Positions 36,727-50,637 of a stretch of DNA of 64,000 nucleotides are shown piece after piece; position 1 is the first letter of the stretch, and each line of letters opens with the position of its first letter. Location of the stretch: the NCBI GenBank assembly GCA_964541905.1, contig CAZIRU010000001.1, positions 2,870 through 66,869 of the forward strand. Reading direction: 5' to 3'. This stretch comes from an uncultured Verrucomicrobiota bacterium. Its GTDB lineage: Bacteria; Verrucomicrobiota; Verrucomicrobiia; CAZIPW01. A model generated the notes under the pieces. It made no database searches. It saw nothing but the letters and a program-made list of their open reading frames with translations, and was not told where the DNA came from. The translations under genes and the position numbers were made by a program.

Positions 36727-37488
36727 TTAGTTTGAATTTTGGAGGATCTGTTTCTTATAGAAATAGTCTTTTAAAAATGAATCCGAAACGTCTCTTTCTT
36801 CAAACATATAGATGCGCTGAGATGCCTGTTTGGCTAATTCCCTATTCAACTGACAAATAATTGTCGTTTGATTCTTGAAAACAATAGGCTCGTCTGTCTT
36901 AACTGCAATAAAAGCCTCCTTAGGCCCTAGCGGCAGTATAATCCGACATTTTGTGGCAAGTAAATCATTTGGCTTAAAGATAAGAGGATCATCGCCAATA
37001 ATAAGCCGATGCTTGCTTTTTCTGAAATCAAAAAAGCAAAACGCAAATGGCATCAGATCTTCTATGTTCTTCTCGTTAATAAGCTCTTTCAATTGATATT
37101 GCGAAAGTTTCTTTATTTGCTCAGCTGTAAGCATCGGAAGTCCTCTTAAATATTTTTCTCTAAGAATTTTTAATTTAGAGGGGTTTCTTAGCAACATATA
37201 CAAAACAAATCCAGCCCACATCTTTTTCTCTTCACCGAAATTCTTTATCTCAACAAGTCCATCTTTTCTCAACGACCTAATCTTTTCCAAAATCTTAGCC
37301 GCCTTGTCATCTAATTCTTTAAAGAAACCTTCAGTACTCCCATACAGATCTTCTTCAAAACAAATACCCTTGGGCCCCTTAGGTAATGATTTCCCATAGT
37401 CTTTATGGAAAATGCAGATGTTATTTCCTTTCGCTGGGTTTCGCCAGCTTTCTAGTATAAATCTTGGAATATAATGATCTTTGGCCAT
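36727..37488 (-). CDS. DUF4238-like protein on a low-GC islet (candidate single-gene anti-phage defense)
   Basis: Low-GC ORF (about 35% GC by eye) in a ~60% GC background; N-terminus MAKDHYIPRFILESW matches my recollection of the DUF4238 HY-x-P-x-F signature; Lys/Glu/Ile-rich composition typical of foreign genes. Confidence 0.5.
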   Translation of the reverse strand: MAKDHYIPRFILESWRNPAKGNNICIFHKDYGKSLPKGPKGICFEEDLYGSTEGFFKELDDKAAKILEKIRSLRKDGLVEIKNFGEEKKMWAGFVLYMLLRNPSKLKILREKYLRGLPMLTAEQIKKLSQYQLKELINEKNIEDLMPFAFCFFDFRKSKHRLIIGDDPLIFKPNDLLATKCRIILPLGPKEAFIAVKTDEPIVFKNQTTIICQLNRELAKQASQRIYMFEERDVSDSFLKDYFYKKQILQNSN

Positions 37489-44784: not shown

Positions 44785-46668
44785 ATGTGTTTTTTGTGCC
44801 CAGTCATTCTTGCCAGCGCCGCGCTTTTGGCGGGCTGTGCGCCGCAGATGGTTCAAGAACCCAATGACGCATTGGCAGAAGCGGAGGCGTATTATCAGGC
44901 GCATCCGGAGTTTTTTATTTTTGCCGCGCCCAAAGATCTGCCCAAAGATTTGCGTTGGCAGCGGGCCGAAGGCGTTGCTCCTTGGGCAGACTCGCGAGCG
45001 GTAGTCGGAGGAACGCTGCGCGATTTTATCGCCGACTTTCCCCGTACGCTGCGCGTGGTCGGCCCCGACTCCAACGGCAGTTTCCGCAGCGTCATTTTGG
45101 ATTCCAATGCGCTTTCGCTGCTTTCGCTCCACCCCAATGACCCGGAGGTGGCGCTACCTTCGCTCGCAAAAGAATGGGCGGTAAGTGACGATAAAACGAC
45201 GGTCTATTTTCGTTTGGACCCTGACGCGCGGTTTAGCGATGGGGAAGAAATCACCTCCGCCGATTATTTCTTTGCGTTTTTCTTTTTCCGGAGCCCGCAC
45301 ATCCATGACCCGTGGTATAACAACTTTTACGCGACGGAGTACAAGGCCATCACCCGCTACGATGATTTTACCATAGCCATCACGCTTCCGCGCGCACGCC
45401 CAGACTTCTTGGAAAAGGCCGGAGGGTTGCGGCCGATGCCGCGGCAATTTTACGCGGAGCTTGGCGACGACTATCCCAGCCGCTATCAATGGAAGTTTGA
45501 GCCCACCACCGGTCCCTACGAGGTTCGGCCTGCGGATTTGCGCAAAGGGCGCTCGGTCACGCTCCGGCGCGTCAAAAACTGGTGGGCAAATGAAAAGCCC
45601 TTCTTGGCTCATCGGTTCAATCCAGAAAACCTCATTTTTACCGTCGTCAGAGACCCCAACAAGGCATTTGAGCTTTTCTTGGCCGGGGAGATCGACATGT
45701 TCTTTTTGAACTTGCCCGAGTATTGGTATGATCGTGCGCCAAAGGCTCCCGCCGTCAAAGGCGGCTATATCCAGCGCGCAACGTTCTATAACGATCTGCC
45801 GCGCCCAACGTGGGGACTTTATCTTAACGTGGGGGACGCGCTTTTAAAAGACGTACACGTCAGGCGCGGTTTGGCTGCGGCGCTCAACTGGGAACGCGTC
45901 CTGTCGTTTTTCTTTCGTGGGGATTATGAACGGCTACCCGGCTACGCGCAGGGCTATGGCAAATTCACCAATTCCCACATCCAACCGCAAAATTTCAACT
46001 TGGAGCTGGCAGCAAAAGAATTTGCGCTCGCGGGCTTTGCGCAACGCGGAAACGACGGGATTTTGCGAAGCGCGGACGGCTCGCGGCTTTCAATCACGCT
46101 CACCGCGAGCGAAGGACCCTTAAGCGGCGCGCTCATGATTTTGAAAGAGGAGGCGCTCAAGGCGGGCGTGGAACTCAATCTTGAAATCCTCGACCCCACG
46201 ACCGCGTTCAAGAAAACCAGCGAGAAAAAACATCAGGCGGCCTTCATGGGATTTGCCGTCTCGGCCGAGCGCTTCCCGCGTTATTGGGAGATGTTTCACG
46301 GCGTGAACGCCAAGCCTCAAACAAACAATTTATGCAATCTCGACGATGCGGAAATTAACGCCCTCATCGAACGCTACGACACCTCCACGGACGAAGAGGA
46401 AATCCGGAAAATCTCATGGGAGCTGCAAGAACGCCTTGACGCGCAGAGCTGTTTTATCCCCGCCTTTATGCGGACGAATTATCGTATGGGCTTTTGGCGC
46501 TGGGTGCGCTTTCCGGAAGGCTTTGACGTCAAGACGGGTCTGGGAGCTTCGGATCTGCTGTGGCTGGACGAAGCCGCTCAAGAAGAGACGTTCCGCGCAC
46601 GCAACGAGGGCCGGACTTTTGAAAACACTCCCCTTATTTTTGACCAATGGAAAAACTCCTCGAAATAG
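44785..46668 (+). CDS. ABC transporter substrate-binding lipoprotein, family 5 (YejA/OppA-like)
   Basis: Lipoprotein signal MCFLCPVILASAALLAGC; large (627 aa) solute-binding protein within the permease/ATPase operon. Confidence 0.7.
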   Translation: MCFLCPVILASAALLAGCAPQMVQEPNDALAEAEAYYQAHPEFFIFAAPKDLPKDLRWQRAEGVAPWADSRAVVGGTLRDFIADFPRTLRVVGPDSNGSFRSVILDSNALSLLSLHPNDPEVALPSLAKEWAVSDDKTTVYFRLDPDARFSDGEEITSADYFFAFFFFRSPHIHDPWYNNFYATEYKAITRYDDFTIAITLPRARPDFLEKAGGLRPMPRQFYAELGDDYPSRYQWKFEPTTGPYEVRPADLRKGRSVTLRRVKNWWANEKPFLAHRFNPENLIFTVVRDPNKAFELFLAGEIDMFFLNLPEYWYDRAPKAPAVKGGYIQRATFYNDLPRPTWGLYLNVGDALLKDVHVRRGLAAALNWERVLSFFFRGDYERLPGYAQGYGKFTNSHIQPQNFNLELAAKEFALAGFAQRGNDGILRSADGSRLSITLTASEGPLSGALMILKEEALKAGVELNLEILDPTTAFKKTSEKKHQAAFMGFAVSAERFPRYWEMFHGVNAKPQTNNLCNLDDAEINALIERYDTSTDEEEIRKISWELQERLDAQSCFIPAFMRTNYRMGFWRWVRFPEGFDVKTGLGASDLLWLDEAAQEETFRARNEGRTFENTPLIFDQWKNSSK

Positions 46669-48460: not shown

Positions 48461-49456
48461 ATGTCGCGACGCATTTTGGTAGTTGGAGGAGCTGGATACA
48501 TCGGCTCGCACATGGTACGCAGACTTGTTGCCGCCGGCGAAGAAACAGTCGTGCTCGACAACCTAAGCAATGGGCATCGAGCCGCGGTCGCAAAGGAAGC
48601 GCGCTTTTATGAAGGCGACTTGGGAAATCGCGAATGGGTCGCCAAACTTTTGAAGGCCGAAGGCATTACGGACGTCATGCACTTTGCCTCCTACATCAGC
48701 GTAGGCGAATCGGTCGGCGAGCCGCTCAAGTATTACGACAATAACGTCGGCAACACCATCCGGCTACTGCTGGCGATGCGCGACGCGGGGGTGACGCGTT
48801 TCGTTTTTTCCTCGACGGCGGCCACCTACGGCAATCCTCAAAAGACGCCCATCGCCGAAGATCACCCACAAGCCCCCATCAATCCTTACGGCGAAACAAA
48901 GCTCGTTATCGAAAATCTCCTGCGCGACATGGCGGCACAAAAACAAATCTCCTACGCGGCGCTCCGCTACTTCAACGCCTCGGGAGCCTCCTCGGATGCA
49001 ACGATTGGCGAAGATCATCGTCCCGAAAGCCACTTGATCCCCCTTCTTTTGCAGGTGGCGCTCGGACAACGCGAAAACAATCCCATCTTCGGCGACGACT
49101 ATCCCACGCCCGATGGCACCTGTTTGCGTGACTATATCCATGTGGAGGACCTTGCGGAGGCGCATTTGCGCGCGCTCAATCTTTTGAGAGAACCTGGGAC
49201 GCGCCTTGAGCTTAACTTGAGCACAGGGAAGCCCTCTTCCGTCAAAGAAATCGTGGAGGTTTGTCGGAAGATAACCGGCCACTCGATTCCGATCGTCGTG
49301 CACCCGCGACGCGCCGGCGATCCGGCGATTTTGACCGCAGACGTCTCCAAGGCTAAAACAATCCTAGGGTGGGAGCCCCAGCATGAGAAGCTTGAGGAGA
49401 TTGTTTCGAGCGCGTGGGCCTGGCATAAAAGCCACCCGAAGGGGTATAAAAAATGA
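48461..49456 (+). CDS. galE: UDP-glucose 4-epimerase
   Basis: N-terminal Rossmann VVGGAGYIGSHMV, catalytic YxxxK (YGETKLVIE), overall GalE layout. Confidence 0.9.
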   Translation: MSRRILVVGGAGYIGSHMVRRLVAAGEETVVLDNLSNGHRAAVAKEARFYEGDLGNREWVAKLLKAEGITDVMHFASYISVGESVGEPLKYYDNNVGNTIRLLLAMRDAGVTRFVFSSTAATYGNPQKTPIAEDHPQAPINPYGETKLVIENLLRDMAAQKQISYAALRYFNASGASSDATIGEDHRPESHLIPLLLQVALGQRENNPIFGDDYPTPDGTCLRDYIHVEDLAEAHLRALNLLREPGTRLELNLSTGKPSSVKEIVEVCRKITGHSIPIVVHPRRAGDPAILTADVSKAKTILGWEPQHEKLEEIVSSAWAWHKSHPKGYKK

Positions 49457-49899
49457 AAATTCAAGCCACAATTAACCGTGTTTATGCCGACTGGTTCGCC
49501 GTTGAAATTCCGAACCAGGCTGTTTCCGCTTCGCTGGAAGTTTTTCGCAAAAACGTTCCTAATGCGGAGAAGCTCATCTCACAGAAGATCAAGCGCGACA
49601 AGAGCAAAATTCATCATCTGACGGTCATAGCTCCTCCGGAACTGAAACATTTAAAAGCGCGCCGGCAACTTCCTTCTCCAAACACTTATCAAAATAGGCT
49701 TTTCGAAATAGAAATGCTTGGAATCGGTTACGCCCGTTCCTTTTTCGCAAAAACCTATTTTATTGTCTGTGCCTCCGAAATGCTCCAAGCTTTCCGCAAG
49801 AAACTGGGCCTTTCTGAGGCGACCTTTCACATTACATTAGGTTTTTATCCACACGACATCTACAACGTTGCCAAATCAAAAGTTCTTTGGCCCTCGTAG
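49453..49899 (+). CDS. Hypothetical protein with two H-x-T-x motifs (2H phosphoesterase-like)
   Basis: Motifs HLTV (about aa 54) and HITL (about aa 127), spaced as in the LigT/CPDase 2H superfamily; lower GC than neighbours; start overlaps galE stop (ATGA). Confidence 0.35.
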   Translation: MKIQATINRVYADWFAVEIPNQAVSASLEVFRKNVPNAEKLISQKIKRDKSKIHHLTVIAPPELKHLKARRQLPSPNTYQNRLFEIEMLGIGYARSFFAKTYFIVCASEMLQAFRKKLGLSEATFHITLGFYPHDIYNVAKSKVLWPS

Positions 49900-50637
49900 C
49901 TACGCCACTCTTTCGCCAATCGGATCAACGACCTCGACAGGCATCCCCAAGGCTGCATAGCGCGCCTGAAGCGCTTCGGCATCATTGCATTGACGGCTGA
50001 GGTGCGCCAGATGAATTTGCCGCCAATTCGGATTGCGTTCCGTCGTCAAAAACTCAAATGCCTCGTCATTGGAAAGATGGCCGTGCCGGCCCTTGATGCG
50101 CTGCTTGAGAAAAAACGGGCGCTTGGTATCGGCCTCGAGCATCTCGGGGGAATAGTTGGACTCCAAAACCAAAATGGTCGCGCTACGCAAAACGGCCTTG
50201 ATGGGTGCGCTCAAGTGGCCCAAGTCGAGCGCCCAGACAAGCCGCTCGGCCCCGTCATCGAGCGAAAAGCCGACCGGATCGGTGGCATCGTGCGGGATTG
50301 GGAAGCTCTCTGCCGAAAGCCCCTCGACCTTAAAACTCATGGGAGCCTCGATGAGCTTCCAATTGAGCCCTTTCGACTTCGCCGCGGCCAGCGCTGTTCC
50401 GCGCGTAGCGTAGATGGGCGTATTCAGAGCGGCAAAACCGCTAAGTCCCGAAACATGGTCGGCGTGCTCGTGGGTAACAAAAATCGCCGCGATATCACGA
50501 GGGGAAAGGCCCTCCGCCTCAAGAGAAAGCGAGATTTTTCGGAAAGAAAGCCCGGCATCGAACAAAAAGCGCGCAGAACCCGCTTCGACCAATGCGCAAT
50601 TTCCCGTCGAAGAGCTGGCCAAAAATTTTACGCGCAT
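49900..50637 (-). CDS. MBL-fold metallo-hydrolase
   Basis: Metal-binding motif VTHEHADHVSGL and downstream His/Asp residues. Confidence 0.75.
   Translation of the reverse strand: MRVKFLASSSTGNCALVEAGSARFLFDAGLSFRKISLSLEAEGLSPRDIAAIFVTHEHADHVSGLSGFAALNTPIYATRGTALAAAKSKGLNWKLIEAPMSFKVEGLSAESFPIPHDATDPVGFSLDDGAERLVWALDLGHLSAPIKAVLRSATILVLESNYSPEMLEADTKRPFFLKQRIKGRHGHLSNDEAFEFLTTERNPNWRQIHLAHLSRQCNDAEALQARYAALGMPVEVVDPIGERVA

Follow-up and report, generated by a model that had tools for sequence, protein, structure and literature searches.

What does a small open reading frame (ORF) that overlaps the end of a galE gene encode, and on what would its product act? The question is raised by a 64,000-nucleotide stretch of DNA from an uncultured Verrucomicrobiota bacterium (GenBank assembly GCA_964541905.1, contig CAZIRU010000001.1, positions 2,870 to 66,869 of the forward strand), here called the window, in which a sequence-only reading had proposed a 2H phosphoesterase of 148 amino acid residues. 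The protein is almost certainly a real member of the 2H-SAK family with the 2H fold, and it adds a new and divergent member to a family that is already catalogued and computationally defined. The best explanation overall, which we consider reasonably probable, is that this gene is a horizontally acquired, lone RNA 2',3'-cyclic phosphodiesterase. The features on which the argument depends are the following:

48461-49456, plus strand: galE, the upstream gene, encoding UDP-glucose 4-epimerase (TIGR01179, 426.6 bits against a cutoff of 262.3)
49438-49444, plus strand: Shine-Dalgarno-like sequence GAAGGGG within the 3' end of galE, 8 nt before the ATG of the ORF (read directly; its function is putative)
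49453-49456, plus strand: ATGA overlap of the ORF start (ATG, 49453-49455) with the galE stop (TGA, 49454-49456), read directly
49453-49899, plus strand: ORF with ATG start for the 148-residue standalone 2H phosphoesterase of the 2H-SAK family
49594-49599, plus strand: R48-D49, two adjacent residues immediately ahead of the first HxT strand, invariant in the 30-sequence alignment A1 of the family and possibly involved in phosphate or ribose binding
49615-49626, plus strand: first catalytic motif, H55-L-T57-V, in the N-terminal lobe (strand 54-59), with T57 invariant and H55 at least 90% conserved
49828-49839, plus strand: second catalytic motif, H126-I-T128-L with G130-F131 after it, in the C-terminal lobe (strand 125-132), with H126, T128, G130 and F131 invariant

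The position and length of the ORF and its overlap with galE agree with what had been read from the sequence earlier. The protein has the motif pair of the 2H superfamily, two H-x-T/S sequences each followed by a hydrophobic residue and about 70-90 residues apart. The HLTV and HITL motifs are both present as first noticed, but the spacing between them is 71 residues and not about 73. In 200,000 shuffles of the 148-residue protein, two H-x-T motifs 50-110 residues apart occurred in 0.5% and two H-h-T-h motifs in 0.02%. The motif pair by itself is suggestive, not decisive, and the significance is supplied by the profile match to PF22547 (2H-SAK, the Swiss Army Knife 2H phosphoesterase domain). 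This is the sole Pfam match at E<=1 (E=2.7e-20), with 73.3 bits against a gathering score of 27, and it places residues 32-137 on profile positions 18-124 of 124.

The protein had been described as an unannotated member of the superfamily. This description does not hold, because the family is already catalogued and the exact protein carries a precomputed PF22547 tag, found in a word-indexed search of 5.8 billion clusters in which the protein, a singleton cluster, returned itself alone. The family is said to have been defined computationally by Burroughs and Aravind, in NAR in 2016. No matches to the protein were found in NCBIfam or PADLOC, and nothing significant was found in PHROGs.

More distant relatives are numerous. 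In 1.84 billion proteins that represent about 15 billion clustered at 50%, an exhaustive HMMER search returned 452 relatives at E<=1e-3, of which 42 reach E<=1e-10. The closest, P0002, is 40% identical, has the same length of 148 residues and aligns from end to end; nothing above 40% identity was found among these representatives. The residues R48, D49, T57, G90, G92, R115, H126, T128, G130, F131, D135 and K141 are invariant in the 30-member alignment, and H55, E63, V105, S108 and L129 are at least 90% conserved. Beyond the HxT motifs, all elements of the 2H-SAK signature are present: R-D before motif 1, P-x-E after it, the G-x-G hairpin, YFIV..S, R115, HITLGF, D135 and K141. Homologs that conserve both motifs, on which the first reading had made its identification depend, are common: T57, H126 and T128 do not vary among the 30 sequences, and two H-x-T/S motifs 50-110 residues apart are kept in 143 of the 150 best family members.

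It is important to compare the protein with the classical 2H families, in which profile searches had been expected to place it. A direct match to LigT_PEase (PF02834), 2_5_RNA_ligase2 (PF13563) or CPDase (PF07823) was not found at E<=1, so that only the 2H-SAK profile recognizes the protein directly. A sister group of sequences, A2, which includes proteins of Ca. Uabimicrobium amorphum, Peredibacter starrii and a Bdellovibrio, aligns with the window protein's alignment A1 in hhalign with a probability of 99.4% (E=5.5e-22) and with both HxT motifs in register. R75 is likewise invariant in this sister group. All 25 members of A2 match PF13563 (best E=1.8e-9) and seven of them match PF02834. At the level of sequence profiles, the link of the 148-residue protein to the classical families is transitive, through A2.

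An AlphaFold2 model of the protein, built on the 30-sequence alignment, has a mean predicted local distance difference test score (pLDDT) of 93.3 and a predicted template-modelling score (pTM) of 0.87. The first modelled lobe consists of strands 2-11 and 14-19, helices 21-34 and 38-49, and strand 54-59 with the first HxT. The second consists of strands 83-95 and 100-107, helix 109-117, and strand 125-132 with the second HxT. The model is formed by two beta-beta-alpha(-alpha)-beta lobes, and the HxT motifs lie at equivalent positions on the last strand of each. The two-lobed 2H fold with one HxT strand in each lobe is thus predicted with confidence, as the sequence-only reading had envisaged.

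In a structure comparison with known 2H proteins, the model scored 7.2 with the cyclic phosphodiesterase (CPDase) of D. radiodurans, 6.6 with PH0099 and LigT, 6.5 with YjcG, 6.2-6.3 with Acb1 and 6.2 with MHV ns2. The penguinpox cGAMP phosphodiesterase, AKAP18, Usb1, ASCC1, rotavirus VP3 and plant CPDase are found lower in the same ranking, and the model can be superposed on CNPase over 122 residues at 2.9 Å. Among the predicted viral structures of BFVD, the top match is a protein of a Caudovirales phage annotated as 2H-SAK (E=4.4e-8, template-modelling score 0.74). Other leading matches are multidomain proteins of the giant viruses Bodo saltans virus and Terrestrivirus, also annotated as 2H-SAK, while for Acb1 and the LigT-like proteins of phages E is about 0.02 at best. 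The proposed 2H phosphoesterase identity is upheld by the PF22547 score, the conserved HxT motifs and these nearest viral structures.

What the protein might do is suggested by its relatives, several of which are fused to enzymes that act on RNA ends:

P0006 (39% identical to the window protein): AAA_33 polynucleotide-kinase-type P-loop domain and 2H
P0083 and P0113: kinase, HAD_PNKP phosphatase and 2H
P0106 and P0122: 2H and PTP-SAK phosphatase, with an additional kinase in P0122
P0102 (939 residues): 2H-SAK, PTP-SAK phosphatase, P-loop kinase and RNA_ligase
P0097 (346 residues): 2H-SAK and Tpt1/KptA RNA 2'-phosphotransferase

Judged by its domains, P0102 is a predicted complete heal-and-seal enzyme. 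Neighbouring genes give the same picture. In the loci L083-L086, the 2H gene begins at the stop of a gene for a PNKP-like kinase/HAD protein, and Thg1 is encoded upstream of the latter. A CCA-adding-type PolyA_pol nucleotidyltransferase gene is located one or two genes upstream of 2H-SAK in three different phage-like contigs. A phage collection contained just two matches, which are unannotated homologs in huge uncultured phages of 642 and 635 kb. The fusions and neighbourhoods of 2H-SAK are overwhelmingly RNA end-healing modules. Since relatives are fused to or adjoin RNA-repair enzymes, the most likely activity is that of an RNA 2',3'-cyclic phosphodiesterase, and we consider it fairly probable that the window protein acts on RNA in this way.

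Two further features of the relatives can be described here. In L083, an 828-kb JGI contig, and in L086, the order of genes is a YqaJ/RNase_T exonuclease, two unknown genes, Thg1, the PNKP-like kinase/HAD gene, 2H-SAK and a second RNase_T; this conserved cassette looks like a tRNA-repair module. In addition, an N-terminal module of about 55-75 residues is found in 24 of the 150 best family matches (including P0004, P0005, P0008, P0009, P0012, P0018 and P0083), where it precedes 2H-SAK or, in P0083, the kinase. Its pattern is K-Y-H-[ILV]-x3-6-G-x2-6-C-x-A ... C-P-x-G ... H-Y ... A-x2-A-Y-E, no Pfam match to it was found at E<=0.01, and it may be a small metal- or nucleic-acid-binding domain.

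The following mechanism can be proposed for the window protein. As is usual for 2H enzymes, H55 and H126 probably face each other across a cleft and form the pair of general base and acid, while T57 and T128 probably hold the phosphate. By analogy with that class, the reaction would be metal-independent. The substrate would be the 2',3'-cyclic phosphate at the 3' end of a cleaved RNA, most plausibly a tRNA that metal-independent ribonucleases have cut. It would probably be converted to a 2'-phosphate/3'-OH end, because P0097 is fused to Tpt1 and other relatives are fused to, or located beside, end phosphatases, 5' kinases and RNA ligases. The cyclic phosphodiesterase (CPD) of Trl1, which also belongs to the 2H enzymes, generates 3'-OH,2'-PO4 ends, from which Tpt1 later removes the 2'-phosphate (PMC11571804). 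In the RNA repair of phages, 2H enzymes have been proposed to clear 2',3'-cyclic ends for ligation, and CCA-adding enzymes and Thg1 restore lost nucleotides (PMC7824862). The window copy may be a general phosphodiesterase for RNA with 2',3'-cyclic phosphate ends (RNA>p) or for 2',3'-cyclic nucleoside monophosphates (2',3'-cNMPs), serving end-healing or clean-up as E. coli ThpR/LigT does. The lone gene would have been gained by horizontal transfer and would now lie close-packed behind galE and share its transcript.

Several observations weigh against this assignment of activity. The association with RNA-repair modules that the name "Swiss Army Knife" implies is found in the family but not at the window copy. 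No relative of the kinase, ligase, phosphatase or Tpt1 was found within ±10 kb of the ORF, and a tblastn search with the fused relatives over the whole window matched only the ORF itself. Since no repair partner was found there, the guilt by association is borrowed from relatives that are at most 40% identical. The closest lone homologs occur in unrelated chromosomal contexts, which do not point to a particular cellular substrate. No PDB chain was found by sequence profiles of the protein, and Foldseek against the PDB gave nothing significant, with E. coli LigT first at E=0.28. A search of the accessible literature found no biochemical study of any 2H-SAK member. Finally, the substrates of 2H enzymes in general also include 2',5'-oligoadenylate, cyclic oligonucleotides, Appr>p and the 3' ends of U6.

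The contexts of the lone homologs are varied. P0002 lies between a DUF5069 gene and an AlkD-like gene; P0003 is located near Tag, glyoxalase and EVE genes and a WYL regulator; P0007 is found between chemotaxis regulators and RuvB; and P0011 is in a stretch rich in toxin-antitoxin genes. The AlkD-like DNA_alkylation gene (L088, 1211-1678) overlaps the 3' end of P0002, and the gene for Tag, a 3-methyladenine glycosylase (L094, 1220-1837), is 1.5 kb from P0003. The presence of DNA alkylation-repair genes near both may be a coincidence. P0003 itself (L094, 3331-3867, 39% identical) has an N-terminal extension that resembles the signal peptide of a lipoprotein (MKIILMMLLPVFAAAC). For an enzyme of RNA repair, secretion or a place in the periplasm would be surprising. 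The 5' end of P0011 is overlapped by an ORF of 156 residues without a Pfam match (L177, 4573-5043), and its surroundings (L177, 6223-10471) contain MazE/PIN, PemK/MazE and PIN toxin-antitoxin genes. Toxins of the PemK/MazF type leave 2',3'-cyclic phosphate ends on RNA.

The 2H-SAK family is divided between the RNA-repair cassettes of phages and giant viruses and the lone chromosomal copies. It is conceivable, although we think it unlikely, that the latter (the window copy, P0002, P0003, P0007 and P0011) form a branch domesticated by the host, whose function is distinct from ligase-coupled repair. Such enzymes could remove signals of stress or defence that consist of RNA fragments with a 2',3'-cyclic phosphate or of 2',3'-cNMPs. 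They could also make 2'-phosphate ends as the substrate for an orphan bacterial Tpt1/KptA, a role for lone copies at which the fusion of 2H-SAK with Tpt1 in P0097 hints.

The similarity in fold to Acb1 raises a different alternative, namely a phosphodiesterase for cyclic-oligonucleotide or cyclic-nucleotide signals, which would either turn over the host's own CBASS, Pycsar or type III CRISPR messengers or be a relic of phage counter-defence. The shared fold and the BFVD entries for Acb1 at E of about 0.02-0.2 are consistent with it, as are the low GC content of the ORF, which suggests a mobile origin, and the convergent neighbouring gene for a metallo-beta-lactamase (MBL) fold protein with a weak Apyc1-like match. 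A further point in its favour is P0054 (364 residues), in which a match to the cyclic-dinucleotide receptor Cap15 is located N-terminal to 2H-SAK. This match is below threshold (23.1 bits against 31.2); should it be genuine, CBASS-type signals may control some members of the family or be acted on by them. However, the window protein has no match to Pfam Acb1 (PF23474) at E<=1 and none in PADLOC, and only one of the 25 sister-group members has an Acb1 match, a marginal one (E=0.006). The family's fusions and neighbourhoods point overwhelmingly to RNA ends, and the annotated ±10 kb, a chromosomal housekeeping region, contain no CBASS or Pycsar genes. An Acb1-like function is therefore decidedly doubtful, and nothing was found to support the relevance to counter-defence that had been suggested for this chromosomal copy.

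The MBL gene was considered together with this alternative. It is located as follows:

49900-50637, minus strand: MBL-fold hydrolase of 245 residues (Lactamase_B_2, E=9e-21), with weak similarity to RNase Z and PhnP

Its match to the Anti-Pycsar protein Apyc1 is confined to the generic MBL motif at the N terminus and has a score of 18 bits, where the cutoff is 50. The protein is conserved across bacterial phyla at 35-46% identity, never beside a 2H-SAK gene, and its five best relatives are all from Verrucomicrobiota (39-46% identity). A signal-degrading pair of an Acb1-like 2H and an Apyc1-like MBL protein was rejected, because the match to Apyc1 falls far short of the threshold and the MBL gene occurs widely with no 2H neighbour.

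We return to the preferred reading, a lone and horizontally acquired RNA 2',3'-cyclic phosphodiesterase, and to the setting in which the gene is found. Within ±10 kb, the neighbouring genes encode a peptide ABC transporter, GalE, the convergent MBL hydrolase, a GT28-like glycosyltransferase, DUF192, an M24 peptidase, LigA and others. An Rfam scan of the window found only four tRNAs. The best GalE relative is 59% identical, and GalE, the MBL protein, the glycosyltransferase and the ABC substrate-binding protein (44785-46668, 627 residues) are singletons among 90% clusters. Together with the Verrucomicrobiota relatives of the MBL protein, this makes the host probably a poorly sampled member of that phylum, and no close relatives of it were found in the collections searched. 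The GC content of the ORF, described earlier as visibly low, is indeed 0.445 against 0.549 for the window. With a standard deviation of 0.046 for windows of 447 nt, 3.8% of these are equally low. The reduction is seen at all three codon positions, and the GC content at third positions is 0.477 compared with 0.62-0.66 in the galE, MBL and glycosyltransferase genes. The window has other accessory genes of low GC content:

36727-37488, minus strand: gene for a DUF4238 protein (E=1.3e-25) of 253 residues, GC content 0.358, directly downstream of an ORF of 829 residues
62889-64000, plus strand, running past the end of the window: KAP-family P-loop NTPase gene (E=6.5e-37), GC content 0.405

The first is probably a horizontally acquired accessory gene and the second probably an accessory or defence-island-type gene; the 829-residue ORF upstream of the DUF4238 gene appears MutS-like by its N-terminal sequence. 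The low GC content of the 2H ORF, like that of these genes, suggests that it was acquired horizontally, separately from galE.

The position directly behind galE could be taken as a sign of a sugar-nucleotide or envelope role, for example the hydrolysis of a sugar cyclic phosphate or of a phosphodiester-linked glycan. The ATGA overlap with its Shine-Dalgarno-like site and the GT28-like glycosyltransferase gene, which is about 0.8 kb from the ORF on the opposite strand, are in agreement with such a role. It is nevertheless very improbable. A 2H-SAK gene was found in none of 80 GalE-anchored metagenome loci and none of 80 MBL-anchored genome loci from other lineages, and synteny was likewise seen in 0 of these 160. 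Neither galE nor glycosyltransferase genes occurred in any of the nine other 2H-SAK contexts examined, and the GC anomaly suggests that the ORF arrived apart from galE. A functional link was rejected, as the linkage is conserved nowhere else, and galE is genomic context only and not a functional partner. The coupling proposed earlier thus stands as an overlap of the two genes, and not as an arrangement conserved in other lineages.

Expression is a separate matter. The ATGA overlap and the Shine-Dalgarno-like site imply co-expression with galE, and the two genes are probably co-transcribed and co-translated. At the other end, the stop of the ORF (TAG, 49897-49899) abuts the stop of the convergent MBL gene (CTA on the plus strand, 49900-49902) in the palindrome TAGCTA. 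The genes leave no gap between them in which a terminator could lie; the two converging transcripts therefore have to overlap, or to stop within the gene opposite. It might be asked whether the ORF is an inert passenger, acquired horizontally and no longer expressed or functional in this host. Its isolation from partners, its atypical composition, its status as a singleton cluster without close relatives and the absence of any promoter-like site in the surrounding 2.6 kb would fit. But the frame is intact and full-length relative to homologs, the model is confident and compact, and the tight coupling to galE favours expression from the galE transcript. Although identity to homologs is only 30-40%, all family-invariant residues are retained, a sign that catalysis is under purifying selection. 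In addition, the identical protein in the same gene order is found in two independent Logan assemblies (SRR8925805 and SRR8925774) and in a 205,565-nt NCBI contig. We consider an inert passenger improbable.

By itself the finding is of little weight: a divergent, minimal, standalone bacterial member is added to a family defined solely by comparative genomics, and the window copy is ordinary apart from its divergence. The fusions of 2H-SAK with Tpt1, and of 2H with PTP phosphatase, kinase and RNA ligase, give a testable prediction, that the product would be a 2'-phosphate end. The small and confidently folded protein of 148 residues would be a convenient minimal representative for a first biochemical or structural study of 2H-SAK. 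The remaining novelty is that lone chromosomal copies may hold a role separate from the RNA-repair cassettes of phages.

The window protein can finally be compared with known systems. In common with the 2H-SAK family of Pfam, it passes the threshold, shares all invariant residues and has its closest predicted structures among 2H-SAK proteins of phages and giant viruses. It differs in standing alone on a bacterial chromosome: neither its polypeptide nor its operon includes a kinase, phosphatase or ligase module. It differs from the anti-CBASS protein Acb1 (PDB codes 7t27 and 9q2y) in having no match to the Pfam Acb1 family, in its chromosomal and not phage setting, and in the comparison with viral structures, where Acb1 reaches E of about 0.02 and 2H-SAK proteins 4e-8.

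The 2H-SAK family was reportedly first described in fungal "Swiss Army Knife" proteins. According to the Shuman laboratory, no CPD (2H) counterpart is known for the split tRNA-ligase system of Mucorales fungi (PMC11571804). 2H-SAK may be a candidate for this missing CPD.

To our knowledge, the bacterial host has no tRNA splicing of the Trl1 type. Sequence identity to the Trl1 CPD of fungi and plants and to vertebrate CNPase (PDB code 2xmi) is only 9%, and the window copy has no attached kinase or ligase. However, the fused relatives resemble this pathway: P0102 would recreate the Trl1 module set of ligase, kinase and CPD in another order, and P0097 is joined to Tpt1, which takes away the 2'-PO4 that remains after the Trl1 reactions (PMC11571804).

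E. coli ThpR/LigT and the bacterial and archaeal cyclic phosphodiesterases (PDB codes 4qak, 5ldi, 5h7f, 1vgj and 2d4g) are, like the window protein, single-domain 2H proteins with two HxT motifs encoded by lone chromosomal genes. The window protein is shorter, with 148 residues compared with about 170-185, it has no sequence match to PF02834, PF13563 or the PDB, and it bears the family-specific R-D, G-x-G, D135 and K141 signature. The expected chemistry would, by analogy, be the same, the conversion of RNA>p to a 2'-phosphate (PMC4201822 for ThpR). These comparisons allow us to infer that the window protein would be closest in function to the lone cyclic phosphodiesterases of the ThpR/LigT type and to the CPD module of Trl1.

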